A stretch of DNA of 64,000 bases from NCBI GenBank assembly GCA_963924565.1, contig OZ004607.1, positions 27,280,001 to 27,344,000 on the forward strand. The letters are read 5' to 3'. A program made the position numbers and the translations under genes. The notes below the pieces were generated by a model. It had not been told where the DNA came from, searched no databases, and saw nothing but the letters and a program-made list of their open reading frames with translations. The DNA comes from Ascidiella aspersa. Its lineage: Eukaryota. Below are positions 1 to 59,602 of the stretch, one piece after another; the stretch's first letter is position 1, and each line of letters begins with the position of its first letter.

Positions 1-3000
1 ATCTTGTCATGCAAACGCTACTTGCAACAACACTGAAGGATCATTTACCTGTGAATGTAACGTTGGTTATACCGGCGATGGACAATCGTGTTCTGGTAAG
101 GATTACACTTTTTTATTATTTAAAAAAATGTTGTTGTTGATTTGTACCAAAAGCATTTTAATTGCAAAATTTCTTAATTAGATATCAATGAATGTAGCCT
201 GAGTGGATCTTGTCATGCAAACGCTACTTGCAACAACACTGAAGGATCATTTACCTGTGAATGTAACACTGGTTATACCGGCGATGGACACTCGTGTTCT
301 GGTAAGGATAACTTATTTTTATTGATTTCAAAGCCATTTCCGTAGACTTGTGCAAAAGCATATTTTAAACAAATTTCTTAATTAGATATCAATGAATGTA
401 GCCTGAGTGGATCTTGTCATGCAAACGCTACTTGCAACAACACTGAAGGATCATTTACCTGTGAATGTAACGTTGGTTATACCGGCGATGGACAATCGTG
501 TTCTGGTAAGGATTAGACTTTTTTATTATTTAAAAAAATGTTGTTGTTGATTTGTACCAAAAGCATTTTAATTGCCAAATTTCTTAATTAGATATCAATG
601 AATGTAGCCTGAGTGGATCTTGTCATTCAAACGCTACTTGCAACAACACTGAAGGATCATTTACCTGTGAATGTAACGTTGGTTATACCGGCGATGGACA
701 ATCGTGTTCTGGTAAGGATTAGGATTTTTTATTGATTTTAAAGCTGTTGTTGGTGATTTTTACCAAAAGCATTTTAATTACCAAATTTCTTAATTAGATA
801 TCAATGAATGCATGATCAGTGGATCATGTCATGCAAACGCTACTTGCAACAACACTGAAGGATCATTTTCCTGTGAATGTAACACTGGTTATACCGGCGA
901 TGGACAATCGTGTTCTGGTAAGGATTAGACTTTTTTATTGATTTTAAAGCTGTTGTTGGTGATTTTTACCAAAAGCATTTTAATTACCAAATTTCTTAAT
1001 TAGATATCAATGAATGCATGATCAGTGGATCATGTCATGCAAACGCTACTTGCAACAACACTGAAGGATCATTTTCCTGTGAATGTAACACTGGTTATAC
1101 CGGCGATGGACAATCGTGTTCTGGTAAGGATTAGACTTTTTTATTGTTTTTGAAACTGTTGTTGTTGATTTGTACCAAAAGCATTTTAATTACCAAATTT
1201 CTTAATTAGATATCAATGAATGCATGATCAGTGGATCATGTCATGCAAACGCTACTTGCAACAACACTGAAGGATCCTTTACCTGTGAATGTAACGTTGG
1301 TTATACCGGCGATGGACAATCGTGTTCTGGTAAGGATTAGGCTTTTTTTATTGATTTTAAAACTGTTGTTGTTGATTTATATCAAAAGCATTTTAATTAC
1401 CAAATTTCTTAATTAGATATCAATGAATGCATGATCAGTGGATCATGTCATGCAAACGCTACTTGCAACAACACTGAAGGATCATTTACCTGTGAATGTA
1501 ACGTTGGTTATACCGGCGATGGACAATCGTGTTCTGGTAAGGATTAGGCTTTTTTTATTGATTTTAAAGCTGTTGTTGGTGATTTTTACCAAAAGCATTT
1601 TAATTACCAAATTTCTTAATTAGATATCAATGAATGCATGATCAGTGGATCATGTCATGCAAACGCTACTTGCAACAACACTGAAGGATCATTTACCTGT
1701 GAATGTAACGTTGGTTATACCGGCGATGGACAATCGTGTTCTGGTAAGGATTACACTTTTTTATTATTTAAAAAAATGTTGTTGTTGATTTGTACCAAAA
1801 GCATTTTAATTGCAAAATTTCTTAATTAGATATCAATGAATGTAGCCTGAGTGGATCTTGTCATGCAAACGCTACTTGCAACAACACTGAAGGATCATTT
1901 ACCTGTGAATGTAACACTGGTTATACCGGCGATGGACACTCGTGTTCTGGTAAGGATAACTTATTTTTATTGATTTCAAAGCCATTTCCGTAGACTTGTG
2001 CAAAAGCATATTTTAAACAAATTTCTTAATTAGATATCAATGAATGTAGCCTGAGTGGATCTTGTCATGCAAACGCTACTTGCAACAACACTGAAGGATC
2101 ATTTACCTGTGAATGTAACGTTGGTTATACCGGCGATGGACAATCGTGTTCTGGTAAGGATTAGACTTTTTTATTATTTAAAAAAATGTTGTTGTTGATT
2201 TGTACCAAAAGCATTTTAATTGCCAAATTTCTTAATTAGATATCAATGAATGTAGCCTGAGTGGATCTTGTCATGCAAACGCTACTTGCAACAACACTGA
2301 AGGATCATTTACCTGTGAATGTAACGTTGGTTATACCGGCGATGGACAATCGTGTTCTGGTAAGGATTAGGATTTTTTATTGATTTTAAAGCTGTTGTTG
2401 GTGATTTTTACCAAAAGCATTTTAATTACCAAATTTCTTAATTAGATATCAATGAATGCATGATCAGTGGATCATGTCATGCAAACGCTACTTGCAACAA
2501 CACTGAAGGATCATTTTCCTGTGAATGTAACACTGGTTATACCGGCGATGGACAATCGTGTTCTGGTAAGGATTAGACTTTTTTATTGATTTTAAAGCTG
2601 TTGTTGGTGATTTTTACCAAAAGCATTTTAATTACCAAATTTCTTAATTAGATATCAATGAATGCATGATCAGTGGATCATGTCATGCAAACGCTACTTG
2701 CAACAACACTGAAGGATCATTTTCCTGTGAATGTAACACTGGTTATACCGGCGATGGACAATCGTGTTCTGGTAAGGATTAGACTTTTTTATTGTTTTTG
2801 AAACTGTTGTTGTTGATTTGTACCAAAAGCATTTTAATTACCAAATTTCTTAATTAGATATCAATGAATGCATGATCAGTGGATCATGTCATGCAAACGC
2901 TACTTGCAACAACACTGAAGGATCCTTTACCTGTGAATGTAACGTTGGTTATACCGGCGATGGACAATCGTGTTCTGGTAAGGATTAGGCTTTTTTTATT

Positions 3001-6000
3001 GATTTTAAAACTGTTGTTGTTGATTTATATCAAAAGCATTTTAATTACCAAATTTCTTAATTAGATATCAATGAATGCATGATCAGTGGATCATGTCATG
3101 CAAACGCTACTTGCAACAACACTGAAGGATCATTTACCTGTGAATGTAACGTTGGTTATACCGGCGATGGACAATCGTGTTCTGGTAAGGATTAGGCTTT
3201 TTTTATTGATTTTAAAGCTGTTGTTGGTGATTTTTACCAAAAGCATTTTAATTACCAAATTTCTTAATTAGATATCAATGAATGCATGATCAGTGGATCA
3301 TGTCATGCAAACGCTACTTGCAACAACACTGAAGGATCATTTACCTGTGAATGTAACGTGGGTTATACCGGCGATGGACAATCGTGTTCTGGTAAGGATT
3401 AGGCTTTTTTTATTGATTTTAAAGCTGTTGTTGGTGATTTTTACCAAAAGCATTTCAATTACCAAATTTCTTAATTAGATATCAATGAATGCATGATCAG
3501 TGGATCATGTCATGCAAACGCTACTTGCAACAACACTGAAGGATCATTTACCTGTGAATGTAACACTGGGTATACCGGCGATGGACAATCGTGTTCTGGT
3601 AAGGATTAGACTTTTTTATTATTTTTAAAACTGTTGTTGTTGATTTGTACCAAAAGCATTTCAATTGCCAAATTTCTTAATTAGATATCAATGAATGTAG
3701 CCTGAGTGGATCTTGTCATGCAAACGCTACTTGCAACAACACTGAAGGATCATTTACCTGTGAATGTAACGTTGGTTATACCGGTGATGGACAATCGTGT
3801 TCTGGTAAGGATTTGACTTTTTTATTATTTTTAAAACTGTTGTTGTTGATTTGTACCAAAAGCATTTCAATTGCCAAATTTCTTAATTAGATATCAATGA
3901 ATGCATCCTCAGTGGATCATGTCATGCAAACGCTACTTGCAACAACACTGAAGGATCATTTACCTGTGAATGTAACACTGGTTATACCGGCGATGGACAA
4001 TCGTGTTCTGGTAAGGATTACTTATTTTTATTGATTTCAAAGCCATTGCCGTAAACTTGTGCAAAAGCGTATTTTAAACAAATTTCTTAATTAGATATCA
4101 ATGAATGCATCCTCAGTGGATCATGTCATGCAAACGCTACTTGCAACAACACTGAAGGATCATTTACGTGTGAATGTAACGTTGGTTATACCGGCGATGG
4201 ACAATCGTGTTCTGGTAAGGTTTAGGCCTTTTTATTGATTTTAAAGATGTTGTTGGTGATTTCTACCAAAAGCATTTTAATTACCAAATTTCTTAAATAG
4301 ATATCAATGAATGCATGATCAGTGGATCATGTCATGCAAACGCTACTTGCAACAACACTGAAGGATCATTTACCTGTGAATGTAACGTTGGTTATACCGG
4401 CGATGGACAATCATGTTCTGGTGAGGTTTAGGCTTTTTTATTGATTTTAAAGCTGTTGTTGGTGATTTCTACCAAAAGCATTTTAATTACCAAATTTCTT
4501 AAATAGATATCAATGAATGCATGATCAGTGGATCATGTCATGCAAACGCTACTTGCAACAACACTGAAGGATCATTTACCTGTGAATGTAACACTGGTTA
4601 TACCGGCGATGGACAATCGTGTTCTGGTAAGGATTAGACTTTTTTATTATTTTTAAAATGTAGTTGTTGATTTTTACCAAAAGCATTTTAATTACCAAAT
4701 TTTTTAATTAGATATCAATGAATGCATGATCAGTGGATCATGTCATGCAAACGCTACTTGCAACAACACTGAAGGATCATTTTCCTGTGAATGTAACACT
4801 GGTTATACCGGCGATGGACAATCGTGTTCTGGTAAGGATTATACTTTTTTATTGATTTTAAAGCTGTTGTTGTTGATTTTTACCAAAAGCATTTTAATTA
4901 CCAAATTTTTTAATTAGATATCAATGAATGCATGATCAGTGGATCATGTCATGCAAATGCTACTTGCAACAACACTGAAGGATCATTTACCTGTGAATGT
5001 AACACTGGTTATACCGGCGATGGACAATCGTGTTCTGGTAAGGATTATACTTTTTTATTGATTTTAAAGCTGTTGTTGTTGATTTGTACCAAAGGCATTT
5101 TAATTGCCAAATTTCTTAATTAGATATCAATGAATGTAGCCTGAGTGGATCTTGTCATGCAAACGCTACTTGCAACAACACTGAAGGATCATTTACCTGT
5201 GAATGTAACGTTGGTTATACCGGCGATGGACAATCGTGTTCTGGTAAGGATTAGGTTTTTTTTATTGATTTTAAAGCTGTTGTTGTTGATTTTTACCAAA
5301 AGCATTTTAATTACCAAATTTCTTAATTAGATATCAATGAATGTAGCCTGAGTGGATCTTGTCATGCAAACGCTACTTGCAACAACACTGAAGGATCATT
5401 TACCTGTGAATGTAACGTTGGTTATACCGGTGATGGACAATCGTGTTCTGGTAAGGATTTGACTTTTTTATCATTTTTAAAACTGTTGTTGTTGATTTGT
5501 ACCAAAAGCATTTCAATTGCCAAATTTCTTAATTAGATATCAATGAATGCATCCTCAGTGGATCATGTCATGCAAACGCTACTTGCAACAACACTGAAGG
5601 ATCATTTACCTGTGAATGTAACACTGGTTATACCGGCGATGGACAATCGTGTTCTGGTAAGGATTACTTATTTTTATTGATTTCAAAGCCATTGCCGTAA
5701 ACTTGTGCAAAAGCGTATTTTAAACAAATTTCTTAATTAGATATCAATGAATGCATCCTCAGTGGATCATGTCATGCAAACGCTACTTGCAACAACACTG
5801 AAGGATCATTTACGTGTGAATGTAACGTTGGTTATACCGGCGATGGACAATCGTGTTCTGGTAAGGTTTAGGCTTTTTTATTGATTTTAAAGCTGTTGTT
5901 GGTGATTTCTACCAAAAGCATTTTAATTACCAAATTTCTTAAATAGATATCAATGAATGCATGATCAGTGGATCATGTCATGCAAACGCTACTTGCAACA

Positions 6001-7713
6001 ACACTGAAGGATCATTTACCTGTGAATGTAACGTTGGTTATACCGGCGATGGACAATCATGTTCTGGTAAGGTTTAGGCTTTTTTATTGATTTTAAAGCT
6101 GTTGTTGGTGATTTCTACCAAAAGCATTTTAATTACCAAATTTCTTAAATAGATATCAATGAATGCATGATCAGTGGATCATGTCATGCAAACGCTACTT
6201 GCAACAACACTGAAGGATCATTTACCTGTGAATGTAACGTTGGTTATACCGGCAATGGACAATCGTGTTCTGGTAAGGATTAGACTTTTTTATTGTTTTT
6301 AAAACTGTTGTTGTTGATTTGTGCCAAAAGCATTTTAATTGCCAAATTTCTTAATTAGATATCAATGAATGCATGATCAGTGGATCATGTCATGCAAACG
6401 CTACTTGCAACAACACTGAAGGATCATTTACCTGTGAATGTAACGTTGGTTATACCGGCGATGGACAATCGTGTTCTGGTAAGGATTGGGCTTTTTTATT
6501 GATTTTAAAGCGGTTGTTGTTGATTTTTACCAAAAGCATTTTAATTACCAAATTTCTTAATTAGATATCAATGAATGCATGATCAGTGGATCATGTCATG
6601 CAAACGCTGCTTGCAACAACACTGAAGGATCATTTACCTGTGAATGTAACGTTGGTTATACCGGCGATGGACAATCGTGTTCTGGTAAGGTTTAGGCTTT
6701 TTTATTGATTTTAAAGCTGTTGTTGTTGATTTCTACCAAAAGCATTTTAATTACCAAATTTCTTAAATAGATATCAATGAATGCATGATCAGTGGATCAT
6801 GTCATGCAAACGCTACTTGCAACAACACTGAAGGATCATTTACCTGTGAATGTAACACTGGTTATACCGGCGATGGACAATCGTGTTCTGGTAACGATTA
6901 GACTTTTTTATTGTTTTTGAAACTGTTGTTGTTGATTTGTACCAAAAGCATTTTAATTGCCAAATTTCTTAATCAGATATCAATGAATGTAGCCTGAGTG
7001 GATCTTGTCATGCAAACGCTACTTGCAACAACACTGAAGGATCATTTACCTGTGAATGTACCGTTGGTTATACCGGCGATGGACAATCGTGTTCTGGTAA
7101 GGATTAGGCTTTTTTATTGGTTTTAAAACTGTTGTTGTTGATTTTTACCAAAAGCCTTTTAATTACCAAATTTCTTAATTAGATATCAATGAATGCATGA
7201 TCAGTGGATCATGTCATGCAAACGCTACTTGCAACAACACTGAAGGATCATTTACCTGTGAATGTAACACTGGTTATACCGGCGATGGACAATCGTGTTC
7301 TGGTAAGGATTAGACTTTTTATTGTTTTTAAAACTGTTGTTGTTGATTTGTACCAAAAGCATTTTAATTACCAAATTTCTTAAATAGATATCAATGAATG
7401 TAACCTGAGTGGATCTTGTCATGCAAACGCTACTTGCAACAACACTGAAGGATCATTTGCCTGTGAATGTAACGTTGGTTATACCGGCGATGGACAATCG
7501 TGTTCTGGTAAGGATTAGGCTTTTTTATTGGTTTTAAAACTGTTGTTGTTGATTTTTACCAAAAGCATTTTAATTACCAAATTTCTTAAATAGATATCAA
7601 TGAATGCATGATCAGTGGATCATGTCATGCAAACGCTACTTGCAACAACACTGAAGGATCATTTACCTGTGAATGTAACGCTGGTTATAGAGGCGATGGA
7701 CATTCTTGTTCTG
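1..7713 (+). repeat. Tandem array of 38 ~204-207-bp units, each a 120-bp phase-1/1 calcium-binding EGF exon plus an 84-87-bp intron
   Basis: Exons start at 182, 386, 592, 798, 1004, 1210, 1417, 1624, 1830, 2034, 2240, 2446, 2652, 2858, 3065, 3272, 3479, 3685, 3891, 4095, 4301, 4507, 4712, 4918, 5124, 5331, 5537, 5741, 5947, 6153, 6359, 6565, 6771, 6977, 7183, 7388, 7594. Consensus DINEC(MI/SL/IL)[22 protein letters not shown](V/T)[10 protein letters not shown]. Introns run GTAAG...AATTAG. The array continues beyond the left edge. Confidence 0.97.
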
Positions 7714-10700
7714 GTAACATTTTTCTTTTGAATTTCGTTTGTTTTCATTACAAATGAATTTTTTTAAATACATTTTATTTTCCACGCTTAGTTTTGTGGT
7801 TTAGTCGTTCTTTTTTTGGTTGTATTTAATATTGTTTTCAAATAGATGTTGACGAATGTAGTTTTGAACTGAGTGTATGCAATCTTTCCATATCTTTTTG
7901 TGTTAATCACATCGGAAGTTACAGCTGCCTTTGCTTATCAACTGCTTCGTCTTCAAACTGTTCAAGTTAGTTTTTCAACTTTGTTAATTACTTTTGCTTG
8001 CCTTTTTAATTTCCATGTTTCCTTATTCTATTTTGTATTTAACTTCTTTGTTTCTAGCTGTTCATGGCTGAAAAGAAGTCTGTAACTGCTAATTTTTAAA
8101 AAGTGTGTTTGCGAATTGTCAACCGTTGTTTTTGTGTAAACCTAGTTGGAACGCGTTTCGCCGTTACTCTCGCGAACCGCAGCTACACCGAGCAATTCGC
8201 CAATCTCTCCAATCCTCAGGCTTTCCAACTTGCCAGTACCTTGCAACCAGTGTTAAGTCGTGCCTTTAGAAGCGACGTGCGGATGATCGGCTTTCAAAAC
8301 GGTAGTCTCGTTGCAATGTAAGTGTTTTTGTCCGTTTTTACGGGTTGATAGCTACTCCCTAGTCTTTATCAAGACCCATAGGGCATAGATACGATTTCGT
8401 GGTGTTTTCAGGGTTGTTTAAAGCTATGTTCTAACTATTTAAGATAATTGGTTTCTCGTTTCAACCCTTGATAAAAAAAACAGGCTACTGTATCATGTTT
8501 CCGTCATGTACAAATATTAGATTCAAGGGCCAGTGATTTTTAGGAAGGCGCATGCTGTATTCCTTGGAAATTTGCAACAAAGATTGGCAGCAACTTATCA
8601 CTGTAGACATTTATGTATTGTAGCAGCAATCTGCACAAAAAGAACCCTGCACAGCAGCAGCAGCAGCTTGCTAACTCAAACATTCACTTTTTGTGCAGAT
8701 TCGTTGTGATTCATAACGGCAGCACAACATCGCAATTCCTGATTCAGTCCTTTACTACGTGGAAGTCCGAGAATCCAGCTTTGGCGACGATATTCGATGG
8801 AAAGCCGGTAGAATGTAAGTTTAGCGCAATGTCAATGTACAACGTGCTTTTATTTGTTGTTGCTCCTATTTATGAAATGAGATAACTTTAAAGTATTATG
8901 CCAACCAACGCTACATGAAAATATTTACGGTAAGGTGTTCAAGCAATCGTTTGACGCCACACTGAAAAAAAACAGGAACATAAGTCAACGAATCCATACT
9001 TAAAAGTCTTAGATTGTAAGCTCATTGATGTTACCTATACAAGCTTACTTCGTGAAACTGAAAGCAAATACTGGCTACGTCTGACCTTCGCCGGTCGTGT
9101 TGTAATTGCCACCGCTTTTCTTCTACAGTTTTCCCTAACCCCTGTGCATCCTCACCCTGTGGCAGCGGCGGAACTTGCAGCAAGTTTGGCTTAACGTTTA
9201 AGTGCTCGTGTCGGGACGGATTCTCAGGAGACCGTTGTCAGCTTGGTAAGAAACCGGGACGGATGGGCTGGCGCTTTCGAGTAATTTCACCCTAATTTCG
9301 CGTCTATAGGACACTTGTCCCAAACAAAGTCCTTTCGAGTGTGTTTTTATTGCGCCACAGTTGTACACCTTTATGTTAAAGTATTTCAATACGGTGGTGT
9401 AGGTTGGCAATATTCATGCAAAATACGAAACTGATTTAAGGTTTCGTTGGTGTCGTGACGCAGTTTATTAAGCCAAACCAAAATATACTTAAGCGTAAAA
9501 TCCTACCATCATAAATTAGGCAAAAAAGAAGAAGAAGGTGCAGGGCATCCATCTCATTAAACTTGCTAAATATTTTCTGAAATTCTTGTATTTTGTTGAT
9601 TTTAAAATTGTTATTATTTTTGTGATATCTTAACAGTTGTAAAAAACTTAATTCACTAAAAAACTCGCCTGACCTGCAAAATGTTAAAAAAAATTAAAAA
9701 CAAATAAGAAAATTGGACACCAAGAGACCTATCAGAGGCTTGCGTAAGTTGAACATGAGCTAAAGTCACCATAGCTCGTTAAATACCCGCTTGTTTTGGT
9801 CCCTCGCAGTCGACCACTGCCACTTCAAGACCTGTGCTTCTCAAGCCACTTGCACCAACCTCAATTCTACAGCCGCGTGCACTTGCCGTCCTCTGCATAA
9901 AGGCGACCCCGAAGTGTTGTGCGAACGTAAGTCGTCTCAAGTAAACTTACCGAAAGCGGTGTTTTCAATTTTGAACCGCTTATGGTCTTCGCTTTATATC
10001 CCTGGACCCGTTTTGTGTTTTGTTCGATTTCCCGACAGAATTTCAGTCAAGTTTCCATCTCTTTTTAAGGCTTAACTTTTACGCGAAGTGTTAAAAGACT
10101 GTGCGAAGATCGAGAGAATTGCTTAACAATTTCAACTGTCACATATAAGACTGCAAAAAGTTACTTAGACTTGTTATTCCGTAACAATGTTGAGTTACTA
10201 TTTACAAACAGCATCCGCTGAGCCTTCTTAGCTTTGGCTCTTCTTTAGGCATTGCCCGGGTCGATAAACTACGTAACACAATACTTGGCTTTTGTTCCGC
10301 TACAAGATTAACTAAGCTAATCTTGTGTTATTAATTATATTTTTTTAGCCTACTGCTTAAGCCAGAATGTGTCGACATACTCGTTTGCTGAAACCTGGGT
10401 AGGGCAAGTCGCCTATTCCACACAAAAGTGTCCGCAAGGTAAGAAGGCTTTTTTTATAATAGTGAAAGAAATAGTGTATAATATGACCGAAAGCAAACTA
10501 TTTGTTTCCCTCCTTAGCAAGATAAGTTATACTGAGTAAGTAGATTCTATACTTGTGCGGATACATGTCTTTCATAAGAATACAGTCTTTTAAATGGTAG
10601 CCAGTTTTTGGCTTAATTAGGTAATTTTTCGTCTAAATTGTTGCATATTATAATCCAACTGATGTTGATCAATTTCGTGACACTCATAATGACCTTAACG

Positions 10701-13700
10701 ACAATAAAACGTAATTAAATTTGTTTCGAAATGTCAAGGTCGTTCAAGGGCATCGATCGGATGTGTCGCCGGGCACACGTTCTCTCTAGCGTCCCTGACG
10801 GTGGTTGGATGCAGCAGCACGGTTACCACTTTGACCTCATCCAGTCCTGTTGAAGTAAGTTAAAGTGTCCGTAACGGGTATACTTTCTGCCATTTCTCCA
10901 AGGTCGGTACACCTTAAGATTTGTCTTTGTTTACAAAGGTATTTTTAGAAGTACATTTGCCTGATTTAAGTAATATGTTTATGATGGTCCGATACTTGCT
11001 ATTGTACTCAGATGTTAAGCAACACGATTCCAAAAGACATTACAATGGTCTAATAAATAAAATTGATCAAATTTGTTGGTCGTAATGGTAATGATTTTTT
11101 GCGGGTAATAGGCCAAATTTGCTTTTGTATTAAAAAAAGCCTATTTATCTTTGATTCTGCAATGTAATGTTTAAGTTCTCAGAAATTTACTTTTATAGCT
11201 CTTCATTGATCGCATAGCATCACTGCAACTTGGTAGCGGATACCCCCATATCACCAGTTACCTAATTGTGTTCTAACCTACAACCTCCTTCATTATTATC
11301 AAGATTAAACAAAGCCGAACTATGTACTTCTGATATTTCATTTATACTTTTTATTTTATAAAAACAATGAATTGCTATTGCAGAAAGAGAACGTGACAAG
11401 TGCAGAGGTCACCCAGTTCGCACAGCAACTGCAGCTGGTGACCTCCAGTGGTGGACTGAGCACAGCTGAAATCGACGACGTCATCGCTGCCACGAAAAAC
11501 ATCACCAGCGCGTCACAGAAGGGAAGCTTCGTCGTGAGTATTTTTGTACACTAAACTAAGTATCGGTCTACAATCAAAAATTTTACCTATGTTCCGAACT
11601 TTACGAAGAATTGAAGACTGATACACAGTAAACATGCAAAAAGAAATTAAACGAGTTATATCTTCATTATTTTATTACTTGACATAGTTTCGGACGGTAA
11701 GTTACGCCCTCCTATCGTCGACTGTTTTTCTTACGCGAAGGCTTTTTGAGTGGTTGCTAAATTAATATGCCGTCCCATGTCAGGTTAACTTTATCAAGGG
11801 TTTATCGCTAGCGAAAAAGAGATTTATCCAAAAAAGACGTTTTGTTATATCCTTCAATTTTGGCGTACATTCGTGTTTACAACCGCATTTTTGCGATGTT
11901 CGTGTTTACGACCTTGTGTATTCCATAAAAAGTTTGATTTAGCACCTTAGGTTTAGGAGTCGGTTCCAACCAACAAAGTTCGTATTTTGGCATCCTTAAA
12001 CTCGACCCACATCTCTTTTTTCGGGAACGACAAACGCTCGACCTAAAAAAGGGCAGAAAAAATCTCCAACGCTCGGCCCTGCTAGAATTCTGCGTTTTGA
12101 GACTTGTTTTTCTTTGCCTTTTGAAAAGGTGGTGCCTGAGACGTGGCAGAACCTCATGCTGGCCAGCAGCCACGCCGCTGACTCGCTGTCGCAGCAGGAT
12201 ACAAGCGAAGACCGGGAAAAGAGCAAGAAGGAGCTGCTTCAGGCTATCGAGGACCTCAGCGGAGTCGTGCAGCTTTCCGCCAACGACAGCGATGTTACGG
12301 TCGAGAGCGAGATCTTTGTCGGTTTGGTGAGTCGCCGTCACTTAAAGATAAGGTTCTCTTCTTGGTCGTTTCGAGCTAAGTCACGTTGTCAAAGTACGGC
12401 CACTACAATTGGACCTTATATGTGGCCCACATGGGTCATTAATAGAATTTGCGATATCCGTTACTTACGTTATCATAAGAACTGAATGGTACAAAATCGA
12501 AAAATTAATGAAATTAAAACTTCTACAGGTAATTCAAATTTAATAAAGGTAAGTTATGTACAGTTGCAATAAAAAGCTGCATATTTAAATTGCGACACAT
12601 TACAAATTACAAAATTTGAGAGTGATTTCAAATTTTTGCTTAAACGCTAAGTGTCTTAATACAATTGTTTATATACCATTATTAAGTAAAATCAATCAAT
12701 AAATATAGTCGTAAATCGCCTGTTGTTTTAATCACGTTTAATGGAAAATAACAACAAATCACGTTCAGAACCGCTAGCAAGGATGCCGCAATCTATTAAA
12801 CGTTTCTGTAGCTTGCCAAATTTCGAAAGGAGGATGGACAGTCGAGTTATGTGACTTACTTGCGGAAGTTTAACACAATGTTAAACAACATGCCATACAC
12901 GCGTTCTGTCACCTAAAAAACGGTTAACATGACAGCTTACCAAGAATCCTAAATGCGTGCGTGCTAGTTTCACGTGTATTTTGTTCATGAACTTTAAAAA
13001 AATGAAAAGGAAGTAGGTAAGGTTGTGACTCGATTCTTCCCCTTCGACCAAGAAGAGGTCGGGAATTCCTGAACAAAAGTCAGTAGTGGTCTGAGCCCAG
13101 TCCTCGCCAACCAGACAACCTGTCTCCACTAGGGAGCAGTTGCCGCCACGGAGGTAGGGCCCTGTAAACTGCATAAGGCAAAAGGAAAACGTTTTAACCT
13201 TTTGTTTGTGGTGGTAGTATTGGTAAGTAGTAATAAGTAGTCGTGAAGTAGTAAATGTTTAGTTATTTTAATATTTAGTTATACTGCTGAAAAAAAAACG
13301 GGTTTCCTAGGCAAAAAGTCAGGATTCTACTGAACCAGGCTAGACTCCACAAGAAGTAAACTTACCTTACAAAGCTACCAATTAACCCCCTCGCACCGAT
13401 GAAGCTCAAGAGCCAAACAGCGGAAAGTAACCTCTCGAACAATCGCGCAGGTCTCGTCTCTTTCTTCGAACGCCGGCAGAAGGCGAAGACGCTCGACCTC
13501 AGGCAGTCACTACGAGGTACAGAGGCACGACAACGGCAGCACGAGCACCGCTATCAACTTCGACCTCCCCGACAGTGTCGTGCAGAGCGCCATCAGCCAG
13601 AACTCGACCCAGCTCACCGTTCTCTTCTTCAAGACGGACACCCTCTTTCCAAGCGGCGAGAATGCAACGCAGGTGAGTGATTTTTTTTTCATTAGATTTC

Positions 13701-16700
13701 CTAAATCCAATCAAACACAAAATATTTAGGTCTTGATTTTTGAAAGTTTTATATCTGGAAAATGTAAAAAAGATTGGGTAAATAAATTTTTAAAACACCT
13801 TTCCGTTAGTTACCGCGTCGAAAAGATCATTTTCGTACGATTTATTATACTGTCATTTGTTTTGTTACATATGTATTATTTTTTTTTTTTCTGAAAGACG
13901 ATTGATATAATTTACAAATTTGATTAACTTTTTTTGTTTAATTAAACCTTTATTTGACAGCTTTTCTAATTGAGACACTTAGAATGTCAAACAACATCGT
14001 AACATACATGTAAAAGTTGTTCAGTAACGAAAAAGGGTCTCCTGCACTCCAACGGCAACGGGCCGGGCAGAGACAAACTAGTTATGTTTTCGTTTTTAAA
14101 TCTTGGACGTTTTACAGATCTTGCTTCTGAGCTTCGGAAAGCAGGTGGTGCTCACCAATCTGCAGCAGCCAATCAGAATTAACCAGAACAACCAGCCGAA
14201 TCGCTACGGCGAGCTGCCAGACCCTGATAACTCTAGATTGGTACGATATCTCACGAGCTAATCTGTGTTTATTAAGCCCCCTTTGGTATTGATAATGGGG
14301 TCTGGTTGACTGCGTAATGACAAACGGAGTAGCTTTTTAATTTTTGAAACTATTAAAGACATTTAAATGTCAAATATTACGCGATTTGGTTTAAAAAAAA
14401 TGTTCGCAGCTCGTAATTTGTACTTTTTAAAGCGGTTAAATATATTAGGATTTTCTAAAGGGTTTCCGAAACTAAAACTGAAGAGGCACTATTCAATCTG
14501 GTAGCCCATATAAAGGCATTAGTAAGATGCAACGCGCTCAGCCTATATTAAGATGCTATAATTATCCTCTTAAATGTAAAACCCTTTCTCTTCAAACCGA
14601 ATTAGTTTTTATATGTCGCTTTTCATCCCTGCTTTTAGGTGGACCGCACCTTCCTGGAGTGCAAGTACTGGGACGAAACAACCAGTGGTTGGGCGACCGA
14701 GGGCTGTTGCTTGAACCAGACCGACCCGACGAAACCCGTGTGCCAATGCTCGCATTTCACAAACTTTGCCCTCATCGTGGTACGCTGCGACGAACCTACC
14801 TACTTTACTTTATAACTTGGTGCTGTTCTTCCAATTGAGCAGTTCCGCAGAAGTCGGCTTTCTGCCCCGCAACCCTTTTTTATTAAGATTATTTATCACC
14901 TGATTTCGTGGTTTTTGTCACCAAATAATTTAACCGCAGCGAAATGATTTGTTTTTTAGTATAAAATGGAAAAAATCAATCACAGTATTTATTAGGAACG
15001 GCAAGCAAATAGCTGAACGTATTTGAATTTCATATTTTATTGAAACTCAGTACCTTTCGCGCATTTTAAATGGCTCAATGTCTATTAGAACTATTTCGTT
15101 AATTGTTTAATGATAAATCTTACCCGAAATTACTTCCTCTCTCTGTCCATAATAATCTATGGTTCAACCTATGGTTCAACTTAGTTTGGTAAGAATTGCT
15201 TAGAATTAAGCCCAATCAGTTCTTCTGAATTGATAGCTGTTTTGTAATTAAACCAACATCATACTTAATGAAATAAGCTATTGCTGCTAGGCATAATGTA
15301 TAATCGAGTGTTGCTCATCCAGCAGTATATAATAAAATGCTGGATGAGCAACATTCGGTTATCATACTAAATATCACTCAGTTTTATGTGTATGCAACCA
15401 AGAATATGGCATAGCTTTTACATACCTCCTTAATCCGCTTCTTGTGAACTTTCGAAATAGAAACCGAATTCATGTCTTTTCAGGCGAAGGACTCGATTCC
15501 CATCGACGTGGTGCTGGAAACTGTAAGTGACGTGGGATGCATCCTTTCTATCATCAGTCTTGTCATCGTGCTCATCCTACAGCTCTCGTCCAAGTGAGTT
15601 CCTTTGACCATCGATTAATTTACCCAAAGTCTAAAACTGAGGCTCATCGAAAAAGAGTTGCGCAGTTGCGCGTTTGATGAAAGAATAATAACTCTGATGT
15701 ACAGCATTTTAATAAAAAATGGTTAAGATAGTATATCCGCGAAAAATATGAATGGCTGAAGTAAATAATTAAAAATCACTTTGTCGTAATAAACGAGTTT
15801 CATGCTTACTTAGTTGCGCGAATATTGCGCGTTTGATGAAAGATAACTCTGATGCACAGCATTTCAATAAAAAAAATAGTTAAGACTGTATATCCGCAAA
15901 AGTTATCAACTGCTTAAATGAATGATTAAAAATTACTTTCTCGTATAATAAATGATTGTCATGCTTACTAAGGCCAAAGTTTACTGACCCTGAATAAAGT
16001 GTTTAAGGAAGGCCTTTACACTGAATTAAATTTGGAGTAGGCCGTAAAAATGTTCTGTAATTAAACTATAGATTTCCATCCCTCAAAATTATTGCTTAAA
16101 GTTTCAACCGCCCATTTGATATCAATCCAATGCCAGTTGTTTTAGCAAAAATGTTTATCAAACTCAAACCGGTGTTTGAATTTTCCTTCTACAAACACTT
16201 TCGTTCAAATAAAACCATACTTTCTAATAAAAAGTCGCAAAATAAAACATGTCTAAGAATTGTAGTATATGTGTAATACTTGTACCCACAACAAAATCTT
16301 GCCCTCCAACAGAACACATAATGCCGAGTTCTAAAATTTTAATAAAAGCTTTAGAAGGACAACGCTTCGAACGAAATCTTGGAAAGTTTTACACTTTTTA
16401 GACTGATTTGTGTTCTCAAGCCTTTGTCTAAGAATTGTTTCCCTAAAAACATCAAAAAACGCAAGGTAACGGAAGTAAACGTATCCCCCCTATGTTGCCA
16501 GCGAGCGTCGCCGTCTGCGCTCTACGCGCGTATTCGTGAACGTTTGCGCCAACCTGCTCGTCGCCTATCTTATCTTCGTGATCGGCGTTGGTAAAACCGA
16601 AAACGACGCAAGCTGCGTGGCCATCACCGCCATTCTCCAGTACTTCTTCCTCACCACCTGGTTCTGGATGGTCGCGTACGGCTACGACCTTTACCTTAGC

Positions 16701-19700
16701 CTCATTAAGGTAGGTGTCTCGTTTATGTATGATGTTATTGTAACAAAAATGGCATAAAAATGGGTGTTATAAAATCTGGTTTTCTTTTAGTTGTAACTTC
16801 ATTTATTTTTGAAACTGTGACACTTGGGTTGCCAAACAATTTTATTACCAAACACCGTTTTCTCTCAAAAACACGATACAAATTAAATTAAGATATTTTG
16901 AATTATCTGTTTAGTTAAAGTTAAGTCATTTTCATCCAACAGCTTGTCAAGTCCCAACGAAGTTATAAATTGCCTTTAGTGCCAGTCCGCAATATTTAAG
17001 TCCACGTGATTGAAACAAACAATAAATGTTTACGTAATACAATGGTTACTCATTAGATTAAAAGCATTTTTGACATAATCAAGAATAAAAGTTATTTTTG
17101 TCTACAATTTTTTTAAAAAACAAACAAATTTTATCAAAACTTCGTTTACCATCTCAAATTTTGTTTTACATTAAAATACGAAGGACATTGTATGTTTTTT
17201 AAATTCAAAAGTACAGGTCACAGTAAAACGTCAAAAGTCGAATCACATAAAAATATAGTAAGTAGACGAATTAACTATACATACTAGAATAACTACAATA
17301 AATGTGTAACGCGACAAGACGACACATGCTCCACCTCCACGTATAGGTTTTCCGCGACGACGGCAAGATTTTCATGCGTAAACTCTACATCATCTCGTAC
17401 GGAATCCCGCTGCTCATCGTGATCGTGACAATCGCGTCCGCACTCGGATACGACGCAAATAAACTCGTGCCCATCACCTGCGATGGAAGTAAGTTAAAGC
17501 TCGAATTAAATAGTTTTGTTTATCCGATTTGACATGTTGGCGCATTACACGTTAGAGCCGTGTTTCTTAACCTTGTTTCGCGGCTGCCCAAATATTAAGC
17601 GGAAAATCAGTAAAACTGTAGTCACTTGCATTTGAAAATCTGTTGTTTAGATTGATTCTGTTTTGCCAGAAACTTACTTTCCAATACCGCTTTTTTTAAA
17701 TGCAACTTACGGCACTCCCAATAAGTTTCTTAAAAAAGAACTATAACAGGGTCAATATATTTTAACTTGGCGATTCAGCCAAAAATTTGACACCGGAGAG
17801 AAGCCTTCACAAATTGTAGAAAGCAAAAAGTATAGGTTAACGCTTTCATTTTTCCGCTTGCAGACGACCTGCTGCGTCACTCGTCGTACCGCGCCCTGAA
17901 CATGTGCTGGCTGCATGGATACGCCCTCTACTTTGGCTTCCTACTACCGGTCGGTGTCTGTCTCCTTCTCAACTGCTTCTTCTTCGCCATGGTGCTGCGC
18001 AAGGTCGTCTGGAGGCAGACCGAGGTCAGAGTTAGCTGTAGGCCTTTTAACACCCGTGCATTCTTGTTTACAACAGCCAGTTTCGTGATTTGCGCATAAA
18101 AGTGCTTTGACGAAAGCGTGTCCCAATTAATCGATTACTATTTTTTACCCTTTAACCCAGTCCTTAGGCAACATAGGGCCGCCTAGCAATTCGTAAACCA
18201 GGGCCGGTTTGTACACGTTTAGTTGTATCCTAAACTCTCGTTTCGGAAACGTATCTAGTCATGGCCAGACCAATTCGATTTTTAGCCTGTTTAAAATACT
18301 AAAACGACTTGTGACCTTCTTTATATTCGTCTTAAATTGCACATTTTTGCACAACTCCAAACATAATAACAAGTTCGTTAGCTAATTTGTTTTATACCGT
18401 CAGAGTATGACGTCATATTGCGTGTATTTTAGATCCCATTTTTGACCCGGCCCGCCACAACATTTTAAGTTTCTCATGCTGCCCGCGGTTAAAAATAATT
18501 GCCCACCCCTGATTTAAGCTAAAAACAGACACGCCTTAAAAATATTTATTGTCTTGAAAAATTTGGTCTGGCGACTTTGGAATAAGAACAATTTTGCTGT
18601 TTCCCTTTCTAAATAAAAAAAAACTTTGTTATCGGCATAGGGTCCGTATTGCAGTTGTTCGAAAAGATGTGTTCTACAGAAACCCTACTTTACGGCCTGT
18701 TGGATACCAAGCGCTACACGAACTGTCAAATTTTATTAATACTTAGGCGAACTGTAAATATAACCAAAAAATACATAAAACAATAAAAATCGGCCAACGA
18801 AATTGGGCAGAAACGTGAATTGCTAAAGTCTAAAAATGCTGTCCAAGCTTAGCCAAAACCCGACTCCCATATTTTGCTTTCAGTTCCCTAACCACAACAA
18901 CAGGGGAAAAAAGATGTACCAACTTTTTTCAAATACTAAAACTTAATTGGGACAACTAAGCTTTCTGCAACCATTTTCGCGACAGGACCTATAGGGATCG
19001 TTTGAAAAAAAATCACTGGAAGATTAAAATGTTCCAATAAAAAACATGATAATTGTTAAAAAAATGTGTAAATGCCGACTGTAACTAAATATTATGTGCC
19101 AGCAGAAAACGTAATAAGATAATAATAAAACGTTTACGAAATATAAAAACAATACCACAAAAACAAAACGATAAAATAATGCGTGTAACAGATACACACC
19201 AACCTGCGTTACATCGTCTAACATGCTCCGTTATACAATCTAACGCAGCGGTTCCCAAACTTTTCTAAGAAATTTGCCTAGTGGACCCGTTGGAAATGTT
19301 TTGATATTTCGCGGCCCTAAAAAATTCAAGGGTCAGTTGACCCATGTTTCATGAAGTATACTAGCGCAGTCACGATTCTTTCTAATGTAACAACTTTCTA
19401 ACTAACGCGAACGATTCGCTGAATGCAGGTAGTACAGCATAACAGATGCTCTGTGTTGTCACAACACGCCATACGATCTAATAATAAAGCATAACTAAAG
19501 ACAACAATAATGACAGATATTAATGTTTAAAACATAGGTAGACTAATGTTTCAAAACATTCGCTAAAGCCTAATGTTGAAAAACTTAAAAGATGAATTCT
19601 CCTCGCGGACCCTGTGAAACGGCTGTACGGACCCCAGTTTGGAAACCGCTGAACGTCTAACGTTTTTAGCTTTTTTACCAAACTCTTTCACTTTTCAATT

Positions 19701-21115
19701 GCCGCAGATTATCTCAAACGCCTCGCAGAAGTCGGCTAAACAGAAACTTGAAATATCGGTGACCCTCTTCAGCACAATGGGCCTGTCCTGGATCTTCGGC
19801 TATCTGCTGCTCGCCTCCAACGACCCTTACTACGTGCGCGTCATGAGCTGGTTCTTTGCCATTTTTGCCGTAACTCAGGTTCGTGCAGAACGATCTTTTT
19901 ATTGAACGTTTTTATATTTTACACTCGTCGCTTAACCCCAATATGCCACAACAGTGGTTGTTAGCCGCCAGTCCGCTATACGTTTCGTCGGAAGGGCAAA
20001 GCGTTTTCTTTATTTTGAAGGTTGGCAAATTATATTTTTTGCCATCTTCAGCTGCGTAAATGCGAAAATAATTTTTACTTGCTATATTGTAGTGTGCTAG
20101 TCCTGTTTCACAGAAAAGCGCCGTGGGTAGTTCATCAAAATTCGACTTTAGAATGACACAATGAAAGATCTACATACATGTGATCTAGCCCCTCTGACGC
20201 TGTTTTTGACCAACGATTACGGCTTCCGTATCATACAGTACACCGAAAAGCCATCGCAGACTAATCGAATCAATGATGCAAGCCAGGCAGGCTAGAAAAC
20301 AACTAGCCTGCAGTGAGGTTCGAAATCACGACCTCCGGTCATACCGGGACCCTCGAAACATACTGAAACATAGGCTTAAGATGGGAACGAGTCGAGACCA
20401 GACCACACGCCAATGCTTTCACAGGATTCACAGAATGTAGCGTTGTCGTATGATTGTGCTTTTATAGACGCAGTGAATTTATTTTAAAATTTTATTTGTT
20501 TATATATTCGCCATACTGTTAGATTCGAGAATACTAAAATATCGTTAAATCATTCTGATGTAAACTTGTTGCGCGCTGTAATAATATAGATATTATTCGT
20601 CATTGCAGCTTAATTGTTTTTATCAAACTACTTGGATATAGTGCGAACTGTTACCAATGTTAGCTTAAAAAATTTAACACGATGTTTTCCCTAAGGTGAT
20701 AATTGGGTACTCTCGTTGTACTCTCATCTTTCTAATGCCCGGGTTTCGTCGCATAGTTATCGGTTAGTTTAGGTTTAAATCTTCCACAATGGCCATATCG
20801 TACATCACGCGCCAATTCGATTTCACCCATCCTACACCGTAGTATATTTTACATTGTAATCTGCCCAACCACCTCCCTTGCTTTGTGGCTAGGATAACCG
20901 AACTGTTTGATTTCACACCGCAGGGAATTCTCATCCTGGTAATGACTTCGGTGCGCCACCGTGCGGTAAGGGAAAAGATCAGCAGCAACATCCGCCGCGT
21001 CCGCTCAAACATCTTCAGTCGCTCCGACGCCTACGACATGTCTTCCTCTGATCCACAGCATGTCCAAGTCCAGGAAGCTACCAGTCCCAGTAGTCCAAGG
21101 TCCTTTATCGAATAG
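1..21115 (+). CDS. Adhesion GPCR (ADGRG-like 7TM), 5'-incomplete: >=39 EGF-CA + SEA + 2 EGF + HRM + GAIN/GPS + 7TM, >=~2400 aa
   Basis: Phase-consistent GT-AG splicing of 38 array exons (1-95 partial, then 120 bp each from 182 to 7594-7713), then 7846-7965, 8146-8317, 8699-8814, 9129-9245, 9810-9926, 10349-10438, 10739-10854, 11384-11533, 12129-12326, 13451-13672, 14118-14240, 14639-14779, 15484-15593, 16502-16709, 17347-17488, 17864-18024, 19708-19878, 20924-21115 (TAG). GPS motif [16 protein letters not shown]...[13 protein letters not shown] is followed by seven hydrophobic segments with family-B2 motifs ([36 protein letters not shown]). Confidence 0.93.
7846..7965 (+). CDS. Diverged terminal EGF-CA exon of the aGPCR
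   Basis: AG|ATGTTGACGAATGT...TGTTCAA|GTTAG, 120 bp, phase 1/1; [40 protein letters not shown]. Confidence 0.88.
8146..8814 (+). CDS. SEA-like domain exons of the aGPCR (8146-8317, 8699-8814)
   Basis: [32 protein letters not shown]...[19 protein letters not shown] matches the SEA pattern, including the FxxGS(V/L)V motif. Confidence 0.75.
9129..9926 (+). CDS. Two non-repetitive EGF exons of the aGPCR (9129-9245, 9810-9926)
   Basis: [35 protein letters not shown] and [38 protein letters not shown]; six-Cys spacing, phase 1/1. Confidence 0.9.
10349..10854 (+). CDS. Hormone-receptor-motif (HRM)-like exons of the aGPCR (10349-10438, 10739-10854)
   Basis: [38 protein letters not shown]...VVGC; four-Cys HRM-like pattern directly before GAIN. 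Confidence 0.65.
11384..14779 (+). CDS. GAIN domain exons including the GPS (14639-14779)
   Basis: Helical subdomain A ([12 protein letters not shown]...[12 protein letters not shown]), then [18 protein letters not shown] and the GPS ending H-F|T-N-F-A-L-I-V. All junctions are phase 0. Confidence 0.9.
15300..15362 (+). other. Intronic 25-bp stem hairpin (pre-miRNA-sized)
   Basis: ATAATCGAGTGTTGCTCATCCAGCA - 13-nt loop - TGCTGGATGAGCAACATTCGGTTAT; fully paired on the + strand with two G:U pairs. Confidence 0.6.
15484..21115 (+). CDS. 7TM and cytoplasmic-tail exons of the aGPCR
   Basis: Exons 15484-15593, 16502-16709, 17347-17488, 17864-18024, 19708-19878, 20924-21115 encode TM1-TM7 and a Ser/Thr-rich tail. 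Confidence 0.92.
15657..15969. repeat. Degenerate ~155-bp direct tandem duplication in an aGPCR intron
   Basis: GTTGCGC...TTGCGCGTTTGATGAAAGA...TCATGCTTACT at ~15657-15810 and ~15813-15969. Confidence 0.8.
18920..19060 (+). repeat. ~140-bp dispersed repeat, copy 1 (aGPCR intron)
   Basis: Near-identical to 22596-22735 (CAACTTTTT...AATTGGGACAACTAAGCTTTCTGCAAC...AAAAAACATGATAAT). Confidence 0.85.
19246..19651. mobile_element. hAT/Charlie-like MITE
   Basis: Terminal inverted repeats CAGCGGTTCCCAAACT / AGTTTGGAAACCGCTG, with subterminal GGACCC motifs. Confidence 0.8.
20150..20415 (-). mobile_element. Possible tRNA-derived SINE relic
   Basis: On the minus strand: A-box-like TGGCGTGTGGTC (~20412), T-arm/B-box-like GAGGTCGTGATTTCGAACCTC (~20335-20315), then AAGCCGTAATCGTTGGTC. 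Boundaries are approximate. Confidence 0.35.
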
Positions 21116-22595: not shown

Positions 22596-22735
22596 CAACT
22601 TTTTTTAAATACTAAAACCTAATTGGGACAACTAAGCTTTCTGCAACTATTTTCGCGAAAGGACCTATGGGAATCGTTTGAAAAAATCACTGAAAGATTA
22701 AAATGTTTCAATAAAAAACATGATAATTTGTTAAA
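22596..22735 (+). repeat. ~140-bp dispersed repeat, copy 2 (CFAP90 upstream region)
   Basis: Near-identical to 18920-19060; lies next to a MITE right end TTTGAGAACCACTG (22574-22587). Confidence 0.85.
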
Positions 22736-22893: not shown

Positions 22894-23337
22894 ATGGAGT
22901 CGCAGGAACATTTTACGCCAGAGCAAAGGAAGCTACAGTGGTGCGAGTACGTGCGGAGGGAGAGGCGCATGAGTAACAAGACCTACGAAGCGCTGGAGAC
23001 GCCGCACGGCAGCTGGCTTGCGCCTGATAAAATGAAGCAGGAAATCACCTACTTCAACAACAACAAAAAGCACCCCAAGTACTCCGAGTACGAGCGACTG
23101 TTTCATCTGAACCACCACTACGAGAAAAAGCTGCACAGAGACGACAGGGCCAATAGAATCGGCCTCGATGTTCACAACGAAGAAAAAAACAAAGCCGTTC
23201 CAATCCTGTCCTCGTCTGAATATGGTTCCCGTCCGCCGCTGGAACAAACTACCCGGGCCCATGTTATCATCGAAAGCGTGAACAAAGGTTTTTACAGGTC
23301 CAGGGGAACGAACATTCCGAGCAGCTTGGATGGCTAA
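22894..23337 (+). CDS. CFAP90: Cilia/flagella-associated protein 90 (C5orf49 family), single coding exon, 147 aa
   Basis: YERLFHLNHHYEKKLHRDDRANRIGLDVHNEEKNKAVPILSSSEYGSR...FYR matches the recalled C5orf49 core ([24 protein letters not shown]...VLTSSVYGKR...DFYR). Good ATG context AAAATGG. Confidence 0.85.
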   Translation: MESQEHFTPEQRKLQWCEYVRRERRMSNKTYEALETPHGSWLAPDKMKQEITYFNNNKKHPKYSEYERLFHLNHHYEKKLHRDDRANRIGLDVHNEEKNKAVPILSSSEYGSRPPLEQTTRAHVIIESVNKGFYRSRGTNIPSSLDG

Positions 23338-28600: not shown

Positions 28601-28745
28601 AATAAAAAAACAGCTCCTCTGGTAATTTTAATTCTTGACCAAAGGCCCTGAAGGCCCTGACACCCTGACGAAGGCGGCTTGCATAGGTTGCCGAAACTTT
28701 GTTCAGGAATTAAAATTACCAGAGGAGCTGTTTTTTTTTTATTAT
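28601..28745. mobile_element. Inverted-repeat element enclosing a hammerhead-like motif (Penelope-like pLTR relic?)
   Basis: ~40-bp inverted repeats (AAAAAAACAGCTCCTCTGGTAATTTTAATTC(T/C)TGA) flank CTGACGA-A-GGCGGCTT-GCAT-AGGTTGCC-GAAAC at 28665-28697. Confidence 0.5.
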
Positions 28746-59412: not shown

Positions 59413-59602
59413 ATATTGCGTACGGGAAGGAACTGGGTATCTTGGGCAAAAAAATCCGGAAAAACAAGACAGTCCATCCCAGAAGGTAAGCCAGAGACTA
59501 AACCCTAAAACAACAAGGAAATCAATTAAGATAGTTTAGTTGCTGAGCAGCACATTTCTTTAATTTTTTTACAACTTTAGAAAATACTGATTGACGAAAT
59601 TA

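Follow-up and report, generated by a model that had tools for sequence, protein, structure and literature searches.

The 206-bp exon–intron array that opens the window (the whole stretch of 64,000 nucleotides of Ascidiella aspersa DNA analyzed here) is predicted to encode the ectodomain stalk of an ascidian adhesion GPCR, a reading to which we assign a probability of roughly 0.75. In the predicted gene model, the array is joined in frame to 17 downstream exons, with canonical splice sites at every junction, and the product runs to at least 2329 aa uninterrupted by a stop. That the array is coding, as originally claimed, is borne out by this predicted junction, in frame, with exons for a complete receptor tail. 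The predicted order is (cbEGF)x38 or more - cbEGF - SEA-like - EGF - HormR-like - GAIN/GPS - 7TM, encoded as follows.

1..7713, + strand: EGF array of 37 full exons and 1 partial exon (1-95), phase-1/phase-1, with GT-AG introns; one 40-aa calcium-binding EGF per 120-bp exon (Pfam EGF_3 E=2e-13; EGF_CA E=1.5e-9, above cut-off)
7594..7713, + strand: last array exon, homogenized to exon site 87, with 5 differences from the consensus at sites 88-113
7714..7845, + strand: unique 132-bp intron with no detectable homology to the array introns
7846..7965, + strand: cbEGF exon outside the array (its Cys spacing differs), in an EGF+SEA module common to Clavelina
8146..8814, + strand: SEA-like domain (exons 8146-8317 and 8699-8814) with a GFxxGSLV motif
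9129..9245, + strand: single non-calcium EGF exon
10349..10854, + strand: GPR128_N/HormR-like region (exons 10349-10438 and 10739-10854; GPR128_N E=4.7e-5, below cut-off)
11384..14779, + strand: GAIN region, 5 exons, ending in a GPS motif (E=1.9e-13), predicted cleavage before 14759
15484..21115, + strand: 7TM and C-tail, 6 exons, stop at 21113-21115 (7tm_2 E=5.9e-10 on one exon)

The host gene

All 26 of the 26 PDB matches are adhesion GPCRs, and the gene model combines a secretin/adhesion-type 7TM region, a GPS just before TM1 and a long modular ectodomain predicted to be in frame. The GPS cleavage site reads H-F/T-N-F; the canonical site is HL/T(S) (PMC8878244). The SEA-like region falls below the Pfam cut-off for SEA (E=0.07) and its third Atlas hit is SEA at 34%, while the Clavelina region aligned to the same exons scores above cut-off. 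Left unspliced, the array has a longest stop-free frame of 69 aa, and every intron of 3n length (10/10) carries an in-frame stop. An unspliced reading (longest ORF 69 aa) and an antisense one (66 aa) were both rejected.

Six cysteines and the pattern D-x-N-E..C3-x-N-x4-F-x-C4, the cbEGF consensus, recur in 37/37 full units. With the glycosylation/cbEGF motif consensus taken from PMC8950332, a POGLUT2/3 motif is found in 37/37 units and a POFUT1 motif in 36/37.

The original prediction named no host gene, and the host gene is the main biological content of the locus. A search for the protein of the array gene did not find it (a word-index search with the 7TM exon gave 0/54 candidates), and exact look-up of the neighboring CFAP90 in the protein collection gave 0/2. 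The literature searched (main texts, with subscription papers thinly covered) yielded no account of this receptor or of a tunicate aGPCR with an array of this kind.

Array layout and boundary

Tandem repeat analysis confirms the exon–intron array (TRF 1-7717, period 206, 37.5 copies, 93% matches). Its regularity is as first described: all 37 full exons are 120 bp, the Cys positions are invariant in 37/37, and the 37 introns measure 84-87 bp (25 of 86, 6 of 87, 4 of 84 and 2 of 85 bp). The count of 38 units is a lower bound, the window edge falling inside the array and the 5' end of the gene beyond the window. Mean identity between units is 96% for exons and 88% for introns; 30 of the 37 intron+exon units are distinct, they encode 13 distinct peptides with a mean identity of 94%, and exact runs common to non-twin units reach at most 216 bp. 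Further arrays or paralogues were not seen in the 64-kb window, and an Rfam search gave 0 matches.

Both the last array exon and exon 7846 had been taken for a diverged array edge. This is right for the former: exon 37 is the most divergent, lying 5 differences from the closest exon where the other 36 lie 0-2 from theirs, and the array boundary falls inside it. It does not apply to exon 7846, which differs in Cys spacing, has 20% ungapped amino acid identity to the array consensus and follows an intron in which we detect no homology to the array introns (92/300 shuffles score equally high). Exon 7846 is part of the EGF-SEA module common to Clavelina, outside the array.

Two local duplications

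Two blocks of near-identical units lie within the array.

1..3401, + strand: block A, 8 units duplicated in tandem, with 1-1753 recurring as 1649-3401
3668..6238, + strand: block B, about 4.5 units at 3668-4592 that come back at 5314-6238, the intervening units not being twins

The reported recurrences at lags of 1648 and 1646 bp are both present. The copies of block A differ at 3 positions (4, 627 and 1712), leaving 1 mismatch in the 1707 bp between 5 and 1711, a divergence of 0.06% (95% CI 0.001-0.33%); the exchange point would lie within 5-64 (or 5-105). A single-site difference between these copies had been placed at ~624 versus ~2272; it exists, at 627 versus 2275. The copies of block B have 4 mismatches in 925 bp.

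Block A could itself be an assembly artefact in an otherwise real array. Its sole internal mismatch in 1707 bp, non-synonymous and a singleton, may be a consensus error, the window opens inside the array, and SmPoMuc arrays of a similar kind have defeated assembly (PMC2576457). We nevertheless consider an artefact rather unlikely, as block B records a comparable event with 4-7 mismatches, 30/37 intron+exon units are distinct, and a false join would presumably need a long identical overlap, longer than the runs seen between non-twin units.

A run of 7 consecutive near-identical lag-8 unit pairs, as found, was reached by 0/2000 permutations. The 8-unit higher-order repeat proposed for the array as a whole does not hold up, however, since only 11/28 lag-8 pairs are near-identical. 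The remaining 17/28 are non-twin and at background (those without an 84-class intron, n=14, differ at 11.8 sites on average, against a background of 12.0), and units 2-8 are not significantly in register with units 20-26, that is, block A with block B (p=0.22); an array-wide repeat was rejected on these grounds. The 8-unit period is the trace of two local duplications, with no maintained higher-order repeat. One may still ask whether a maintained repeat in the sense of alpha-satellites or spidroin ensembles is now decaying, its misalignment register possibly set by the divergent 84-bp intron. Both recent events have a lag of 8 units and contain an 84-class intron, and the two types of that intron are only 4 bases apart; yet the lag-8 pairs at background, the absence of register between the blocks and the spacing of the 84-class introns (8, 10 and 8 units, one of them thus 10) make this quite unlikely.

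Introns, exons and exchange among units

Introns had been described as homogenized almost as strongly as exons. They are in fact 2-3 times more diverse, with an exon pi of 0.043 against an intron pi of 0.122 (MAFFT) or 0.104 (pairwise), and a bootstrap CI of 0.039-0.118 for the difference. Without the 84-bp class, intron pi is 0.079 (the CI of the difference touches 0), near the exon pS of 0.072. This class occupies the four positions originally given, in two types.

302..385 (twin 1950-2033), + strand: 84-bp intron type A, a homologue of the remaining introns at about 21% divergence (30% in the core)
4011..4094 (twin 5657-5740), + strand: 84-bp intron type B, 4 differences from type A

The core of the class is 30% diverged, compared with 8.7% among the other introns. 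That the core is a foreign insertion was rejected, its observed score being reached by 0/2000 shuffles, and derivation of the class from the terminal intron found no support in sequence comparison. The exon halves adjoining these introns have pS values of 2.3% and 12.0%, against 4.5% and 10.0%, in a comparison of 11-13 synonymous sites and two independent flank pairs in which synonymous-site constraint could mimic conversion.

Exchange among units is evident (PHI p=0.0002 in 3/3 unit sets, Rm 4-5), and the fraction of incompatible sites is 0.28, against a mean of 0.125 and a maximum of 0.284 in clonal simulations (n=200; one simulation reached the observed value). Unequal crossing-over, the mechanism first invoked, stands as far as exchange is concerned, but crossing-over of whole units alone leaves the diverged 84-bp core unexplained. 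Because this core is diverged and the adjacent exon halves are not, conversion or crossover below the scale of the unit is needed, and it appears to favor exons. The relic 84-bp introns between homogenized exons offer a compact test for crossing-over versus short-tract conversion. A recombination hot spot in the exon core was suggested by low linkage at exon sites 30-86 and by the block A exchange point. Mosaic painting (45-59 switches) gave 0.14-0.23 switches per bp in the exon core and 0.31-0.42 in introns, switch detection being biased toward the polymorphic introns, and matched-distance association was 0.10 versus 0.17, leaving the hot spot unsupported.

Selection on reading frame had been proposed, and purifying selection on the exons is detected: minimal changes number 12 synonymous and 15 non-synonymous (omega ~0.33, p=0.005), these 27 changes being non-independent and some singletons possibly errors. 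Little can be read from the lack of indels in exons, because those of the introns lie mostly in homopolymer runs. An omega of only ~0.33-0.5, the lack of such an array in the Clavelina relative, and symmetric exons with near-identical splice sites that should be freely skippable would also suit a near-neutral intragenic satellite, with exons mostly skipped or dispensable and uniformity arising from recombination alone. We judge this very unlikely given the deficit of non-synonymous changes, the calcium-binding consensus intact in every full unit, and the finding that 0/37 units have a stop, a frameshift, a lost Cys or a lost splice site.

Related receptors and arrays

In the 7TM tree, which lacked ADGRE rows, the array gene falls within a 15-row clade (100/100) with Clavelina; its closest relatives, joined at 100/98, are P0024 (Clavelina) and P0172. 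Clavelina LOC143445512 shows 42-43% identity along the C-terminal 665-719 aa and has the EGF+SEA module; the Clavelina relative lacks a long homogenized cbEGF array. P0172, known here as a protein only, appears to have its own homogenized array at a similar position, built from a different EGF unit: its 8 cbEGF repeats are 93% identical to one another and 37% to the array unit (94% within the array), P0172 being distant enough that its unit may have arisen separately.

Concerted evolution of EMR2 was reportedly described by Kwakkenbos in 2006. The ADGRE/EGF-TM7 receptors (CD97, EMR2) resemble the array gene as adhesion GPCRs with tandem cbEGF domains, but ADGRE5 has 3-5 of these against 38 or more (PMC13197933, PMC8878244). 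An ADGRE-type ectodomain has only EGF domains upstream of the GAIN domain; here the SEA-like, EGF and GPR128_N/HormR-like regions intervene. PDB scores for P0024 place ADGRG2/L3/G6 (best) above E5, and an ADGRE orthologue is reported absent from Ciona (PMC2396169). The same paper describes lineage-specific ascidian aGPCRs in Ciona, the 'Unclassified Adhesion' receptors, two models of which have EGF repeats; the likeness is one of description.

Homogenization of exon–intron arrays is known from SmPoMuc, spidroins and tenascin-X, and the ascidian receptor array is a new and extreme member of this group. Mammalian tenascin-X repeats are said to have been treated by Hughes in 1999. Tenascin-X differs in being an extracellular matrix protein in which the class under ongoing concerted evolution is Fn-III and EGF homogenization is old (PMC2267704). 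In Schistosoma mansoni SmPoMuc, exon and flanking intron likewise form a tandem unit under concerted evolution by unequal crossing-over and conversion, and repeat number varies between individuals and assembly is hard; the unit is ~1 kb with a 27-bp exon in up to 20 copies, the product is mucin-like, the genes form a multigene family, and introns are more uniform than exons, the reverse of the ascidian array (PMC2576457). Argiope MaSp2 and flagelliform spidroins also have iterated exon–intron units with homogenized introns, more than one intron type and multi-unit ensembles, but their introns average 97.6% identity (88% here), and true alternating ensembles in a structural silk stand against two local duplications in a receptor (PMC9779670). 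Another system of fixed-length, same-phase exon arrays, with 1-51 exons per gene, resembles ours in its expansion by ectopic recombination; it differs in comprising thousands of genes, in being phase 2 and retrotransposon-associated, and in intergenic shuffling. Exon–intron satellites have been documented mostly in structural or mucin-like proteins, and here one forms the predicted stalk of a signaling receptor.

Proposed mechanism and function

We propose that the array grew by tandem amplification of a phase-symmetric 206-bp exon+intron unit. The reading frame survives any whole number of units, so their gain or loss by misaligned recombination would cost little. Occasional multi-unit unequal exchanges would have produced blocks A and B, while frequent short conversion or crossover tracts, as PHI and Rm show, make each unit a mosaic. 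Together with purifying selection, these short tracts could leave exons more uniform than intron cores, and the old 84-bp intron lineage may persist in this way between homogenized exons.

An EGF domain spans ~2.5-3 nm. By analogy, the array is most likely a long calcium-stiffened, glycosylated, multivalent tether of ~100 nm or more. From what is known of the family, such a tether may transmit force, or the binding of a ligand, to the GAIN/Stachel switch; its reach and avidity would be adjusted through repeat number and through exon skipping. The length of an aGPCR ectodomain has been linked to mechanosensitivity; that of dCirl is modulated by NTF length (PMC8878244), and ADGRE5-CD55 affinity changes with EGF number (PMC13197933).

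Alternatively, the array could serve in recognition (of self/non-self, gametes or microbes) and not as a spacer, with recombination as the source of its diversity. Two-state amino acid variants (S-L/M-I/I-L at 6-7; T/V at 30) recombine freely (E14-E87 r2 ~0.1), the ectodomain is volatile across the receptor clade, and polymorphic EGF proteins such as HrVC70 are candidates in ascidian fertilization. This reading seems improbable to us, as 13 distinct peptides at 94% mean identity speak for homogenization, not diversification, and omega is below 1.

Returning to the tether, copy-number polymorphism of the array, of which one haplotype is represented here, is plausible because the copies of block A have diverged (0.06%) far less than alleles do in Ciona (1.1-1.2%; PMC6836712). 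If present, it would supply natural length variants of an adhesion GPCR. More broadly, and only tentatively, tunicate aGPCRs may form a clade with a volatile stalk rebuilt repeatedly and independently from different EGF exons (the array gene, P0172, P0045). In A. aspersa, alleles differing in stalk length would then make up a coding VNTR by which mechanosensory reach, or avidity for a ligand, is tuned, with exon-biased conversion keeping relic introns. This broader picture, possible though doubtful, would if true provide a natural allelic series for ectodomain length versus adhesion-GPCR signaling. For annotation, arrays of this kind call for caution, as they are readily masked as satellites or mis-assembled.

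Exon and intron architecture of the array

The first 7717 bases of the window carry a tandem repeat with a 206-bp period (37.5 copies, 93% matches), which parses into 37 exons of exactly 120 bp each and a partial exon at 1-95, with 37 introns of 84-87 bp between them that all have a GT donor and an AG acceptor. Every full exon starts and ends in phase 1 and codes for a single calcium-binding EGF (cbEGF) domain of 40 aa (Pfam EGF_3 E=2e-13, EGF_CA E=1.5e-9; PDB matches to Notch, uromodulin, ADGRE5 and fibrillin). The six cysteines and the calcium-binding consensus are intact in 37/37 full exons, in agreement with the unit lengths and constant cysteine spacing of the original prediction. By the motif definitions of PMC8950332, all 37 exons have a POGLUT2/3 motif and 36/37 a POFUT1 motif. 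The array is readable only when spliced, since the longest stop-free frames across it are otherwise 69 and 66 aa, and all 10 introns whose length is 3n carry a stop codon in frame. As the window begins inside the array, the count of 38 units is a minimum.

The array is real and coding, and an extreme new example of a known phenomenon. Exon and intron arrays under concerted evolution have been described for SmPoMuc, where repeat number varies between individuals (PMC2576457), for the MaSp2 and Flag spidroins of Argiope (PMC9779670), for tenascin-X (as summarised in PMC2267704) and for Tetrahymena LRR genes (PMC6564038). Neither this receptor nor a comparable array in any tunicate adhesion GPCR was described in the literature we searched; unclassified adhesion GPCRs carrying EGF were already known from Ciona (PMC2396169).

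Host gene and its relatives

Downstream of the array, we identified 17 exons by inspecting the sequence and then verified them; they join with continuous reading phase, beginning at 7846 and ending in a stop codon at 21115. The resulting receptor model (2329 aa, no internal stops) has the domain order array, different cbEGF, SEA-like, EGF, GPR128_N/HormR-like, GAIN, GPS, 7tm_2, with a GPS motif at E=1.9e-13 and a predicted cleavage site that reads H-F/T-N-F. By its predicted domains, the host gene is an adhesion GPCR. The SEA-like assignment is indirect: Pfam SEA reaches E=0.07 on one exon, an Atlas lead has 34% SEA members, and the Clavelina relative has SEA above cut-off in the aligned region. 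The receptor may work similarly to EGF-TM7 receptors, but it failed the ADGRE architecture test. A polybasic RRRRR stretch at 13478-13492 (+), in the GAIN region, is a possible furin-type site. Receptor introns contain a 31-nt hairpin (15300-15362) and one copy of a dispersed repeat of about 140 bp (18920-19061 and 22596-22735, 91-93% identity).

One 7TM exon, used as the query of a full HMMER search, returned 805 matches. In a 28-row tree of the GPS and 7TM region, built without an ADGRE row, the receptor groups with the Clavelina relative P0024 and another adhesion GPCR, P0172, at 100/98, within a 15-row clade at 100/100 that we take to be tunicate. The array is absent from the Clavelina relative. 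In P0172, a different unit of 38 aa forms 8 cbEGF repeats (93% mutual identity, 37% to the unit of this array) shortly upstream of the HormR-like/GAIN region, and the related P0045 has a looser EGF pattern of two types. These patterns, seen as protein repeats, suggest that the ectodomain in this clade is repeatedly rebuilt through repeat expansion. The Clavelina relative is another repeat-built ectodomain upon the same receptor core, and shows two EGF+SEA modules amid long Cys-rich internal repeats (P0171 787-907 and 1281-1400; P0024). An oyster adhesion GPCR (P0200, Magallana, 252-1031) has a tandem run of about 21 EGF domains, one every 37-38 aa.

The 3' edge

The last array exon (7594-7713) matches the consensus up to site 87 and then differs at five sites, a true edge effect, as predicted; the intron that follows is unrelated to array introns. 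The same explanation had been proposed for the next exon (7846-7965), and here it fails. Its cysteine spacing is unlike that of the array, it scores 59 to Clavelina EGF versus 49 to the array consensus, and together with the SEA-like exons it aligns with the Clavelina EGF+SEA modules (31%, E=4e-17), which speaks for a conserved neighbour and not a decayed array unit.

Duplications, exchange and selection

Two local duplications lie at a lag of 8 units. In block A, 1-1753 equals 1649-3401 with 3 mismatches, just one of them internal; in block B, 3668-4592 equals 5314-6238 with 4 mismatches in 925 bp. Their near-identity far exceeds chance (0/2000 permutations). An array-wide 8-unit higher-order repeat, which had been predicted, is rejected: only 11/28 lag-8 pairs are near-identical twins, the 14 non-twin pairs without an 84-bp intron differ at a mean of 11.8 sites against a background of 12.0, blocks A and B are out of register (p=0.22), and the four 84-bp introns (302, 1950, 4011, 5657) are spaced 8, 10 and 8 units apart. 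The lag shared by both events leaves room for an older, decayed period.

In the single haplotype covered, the copies of block A diverge by 0.06% (95% CI 0.001-0.33%). Because this is well under the heterozygosity of Ciona, 1.1-1.2% (PMC6836712), the duplication, if real, is probably too young for fixation. Conversion could also have kept the copies alike, and an assembly error would give equal near-identity.

The units are mosaics. Compatibility is higher between neighbouring than between distant sites (PHI-type p=0.0002, in 3/3 unit sets; the non-redundant set had block twins removed, 11 of 36 units), with an Rm of 4-5. The observed incompatibility is 0.28, whereas 200 clonal simulations averaged 0.125 and reached at most 0.284. 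A concentration of exchanges in the invariant exon core found no support in mosaic painting. Minimal changes in exons comprise 12 synonymous and 15 non-synonymous (expected non-synonymous share 79%), giving an omega of about 0.33 (p=0.005), with a pairwise pN/pS of 0.50. Both exchange and selection had been anticipated, and the selection is purifying and moderate.

Introns were predicted to be homogenised almost as strongly as exons. They are clearly co-homogenised (88% identity), though less than exons: their diversity comes to 0.122 in the multiple alignment, or 0.104 in optimal pairwise alignments, versus 0.043 for exons. Without the 84-bp class, intron diversity is 0.079, close to exon synonymous diversity (0.072), and the intron-exon difference is borderline (CI -0.0001 to 0.076). 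The 84-bp introns are homologous to the others (0/2000 shuffles) and 21% diverged from them, 30% in the core. Synonymous divergence is not raised in the exon halves adjoining them (2.3% and 12.0% vs 4.5% and 10.0%; few sites, two independent pairs), so homogenisation appears to work at a sub-unit scale that spares the diverged intron core.

We suggest a model in which misaligned recombination would add or remove units frame-neutrally, with short conversion tracts acting alongside. The array would form a long, calcium-stiffened, glycosylated tether, which we take to be about 100 nm or more from the length per domain, coupled to the GPS/Stachel switch. Support for such a tether comes by analogy from dCirl, where NTF length affects mechanosensitivity (PMC8878244), and from ADGRE5-CD55 binding, which depends on EGF number (PMC13197933). 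The array would gain in importance should its stalk length turn out to be both polymorphic and functional.

Other features of the window

Features outside the receptor gene (window positions)
22894-23337, +, CFAP90 (C5orf49), single ORF, Pfam E=2.8e-27
25923-26856, -, probable GNAT acetyltransferase gene made up of two ORFs, one of them matching Acetyltransf_1 at E=7e-5
28596-28745, inverted repeat with 52 nt between its 49-nt arms
about 30200-39400, -, ETS transcription factor gene of several exons, Ets match at 32627-32986 (E=1.3e-22), second piece 30953-31342
43343-44608, -, 421-aa stop-free frame of low complexity, no Pfam match
about 59600-62020, -, exons resembling what we take to be a DRG-type GTPase, no Pfam match on the single ORF scanned
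62810-63320, MITE-like inverted repeat, 26-nt arms 459 nt apart

CFAP90 shares 76% identity with its counterpart in Ciona intestinalis, 67% with that in Styela and 64% with that in Clavelina, which places the host among the ascidians, closer to Ciona. Within the ETS gene, a CTG tract at 36052-36081 encodes poly-Gln.
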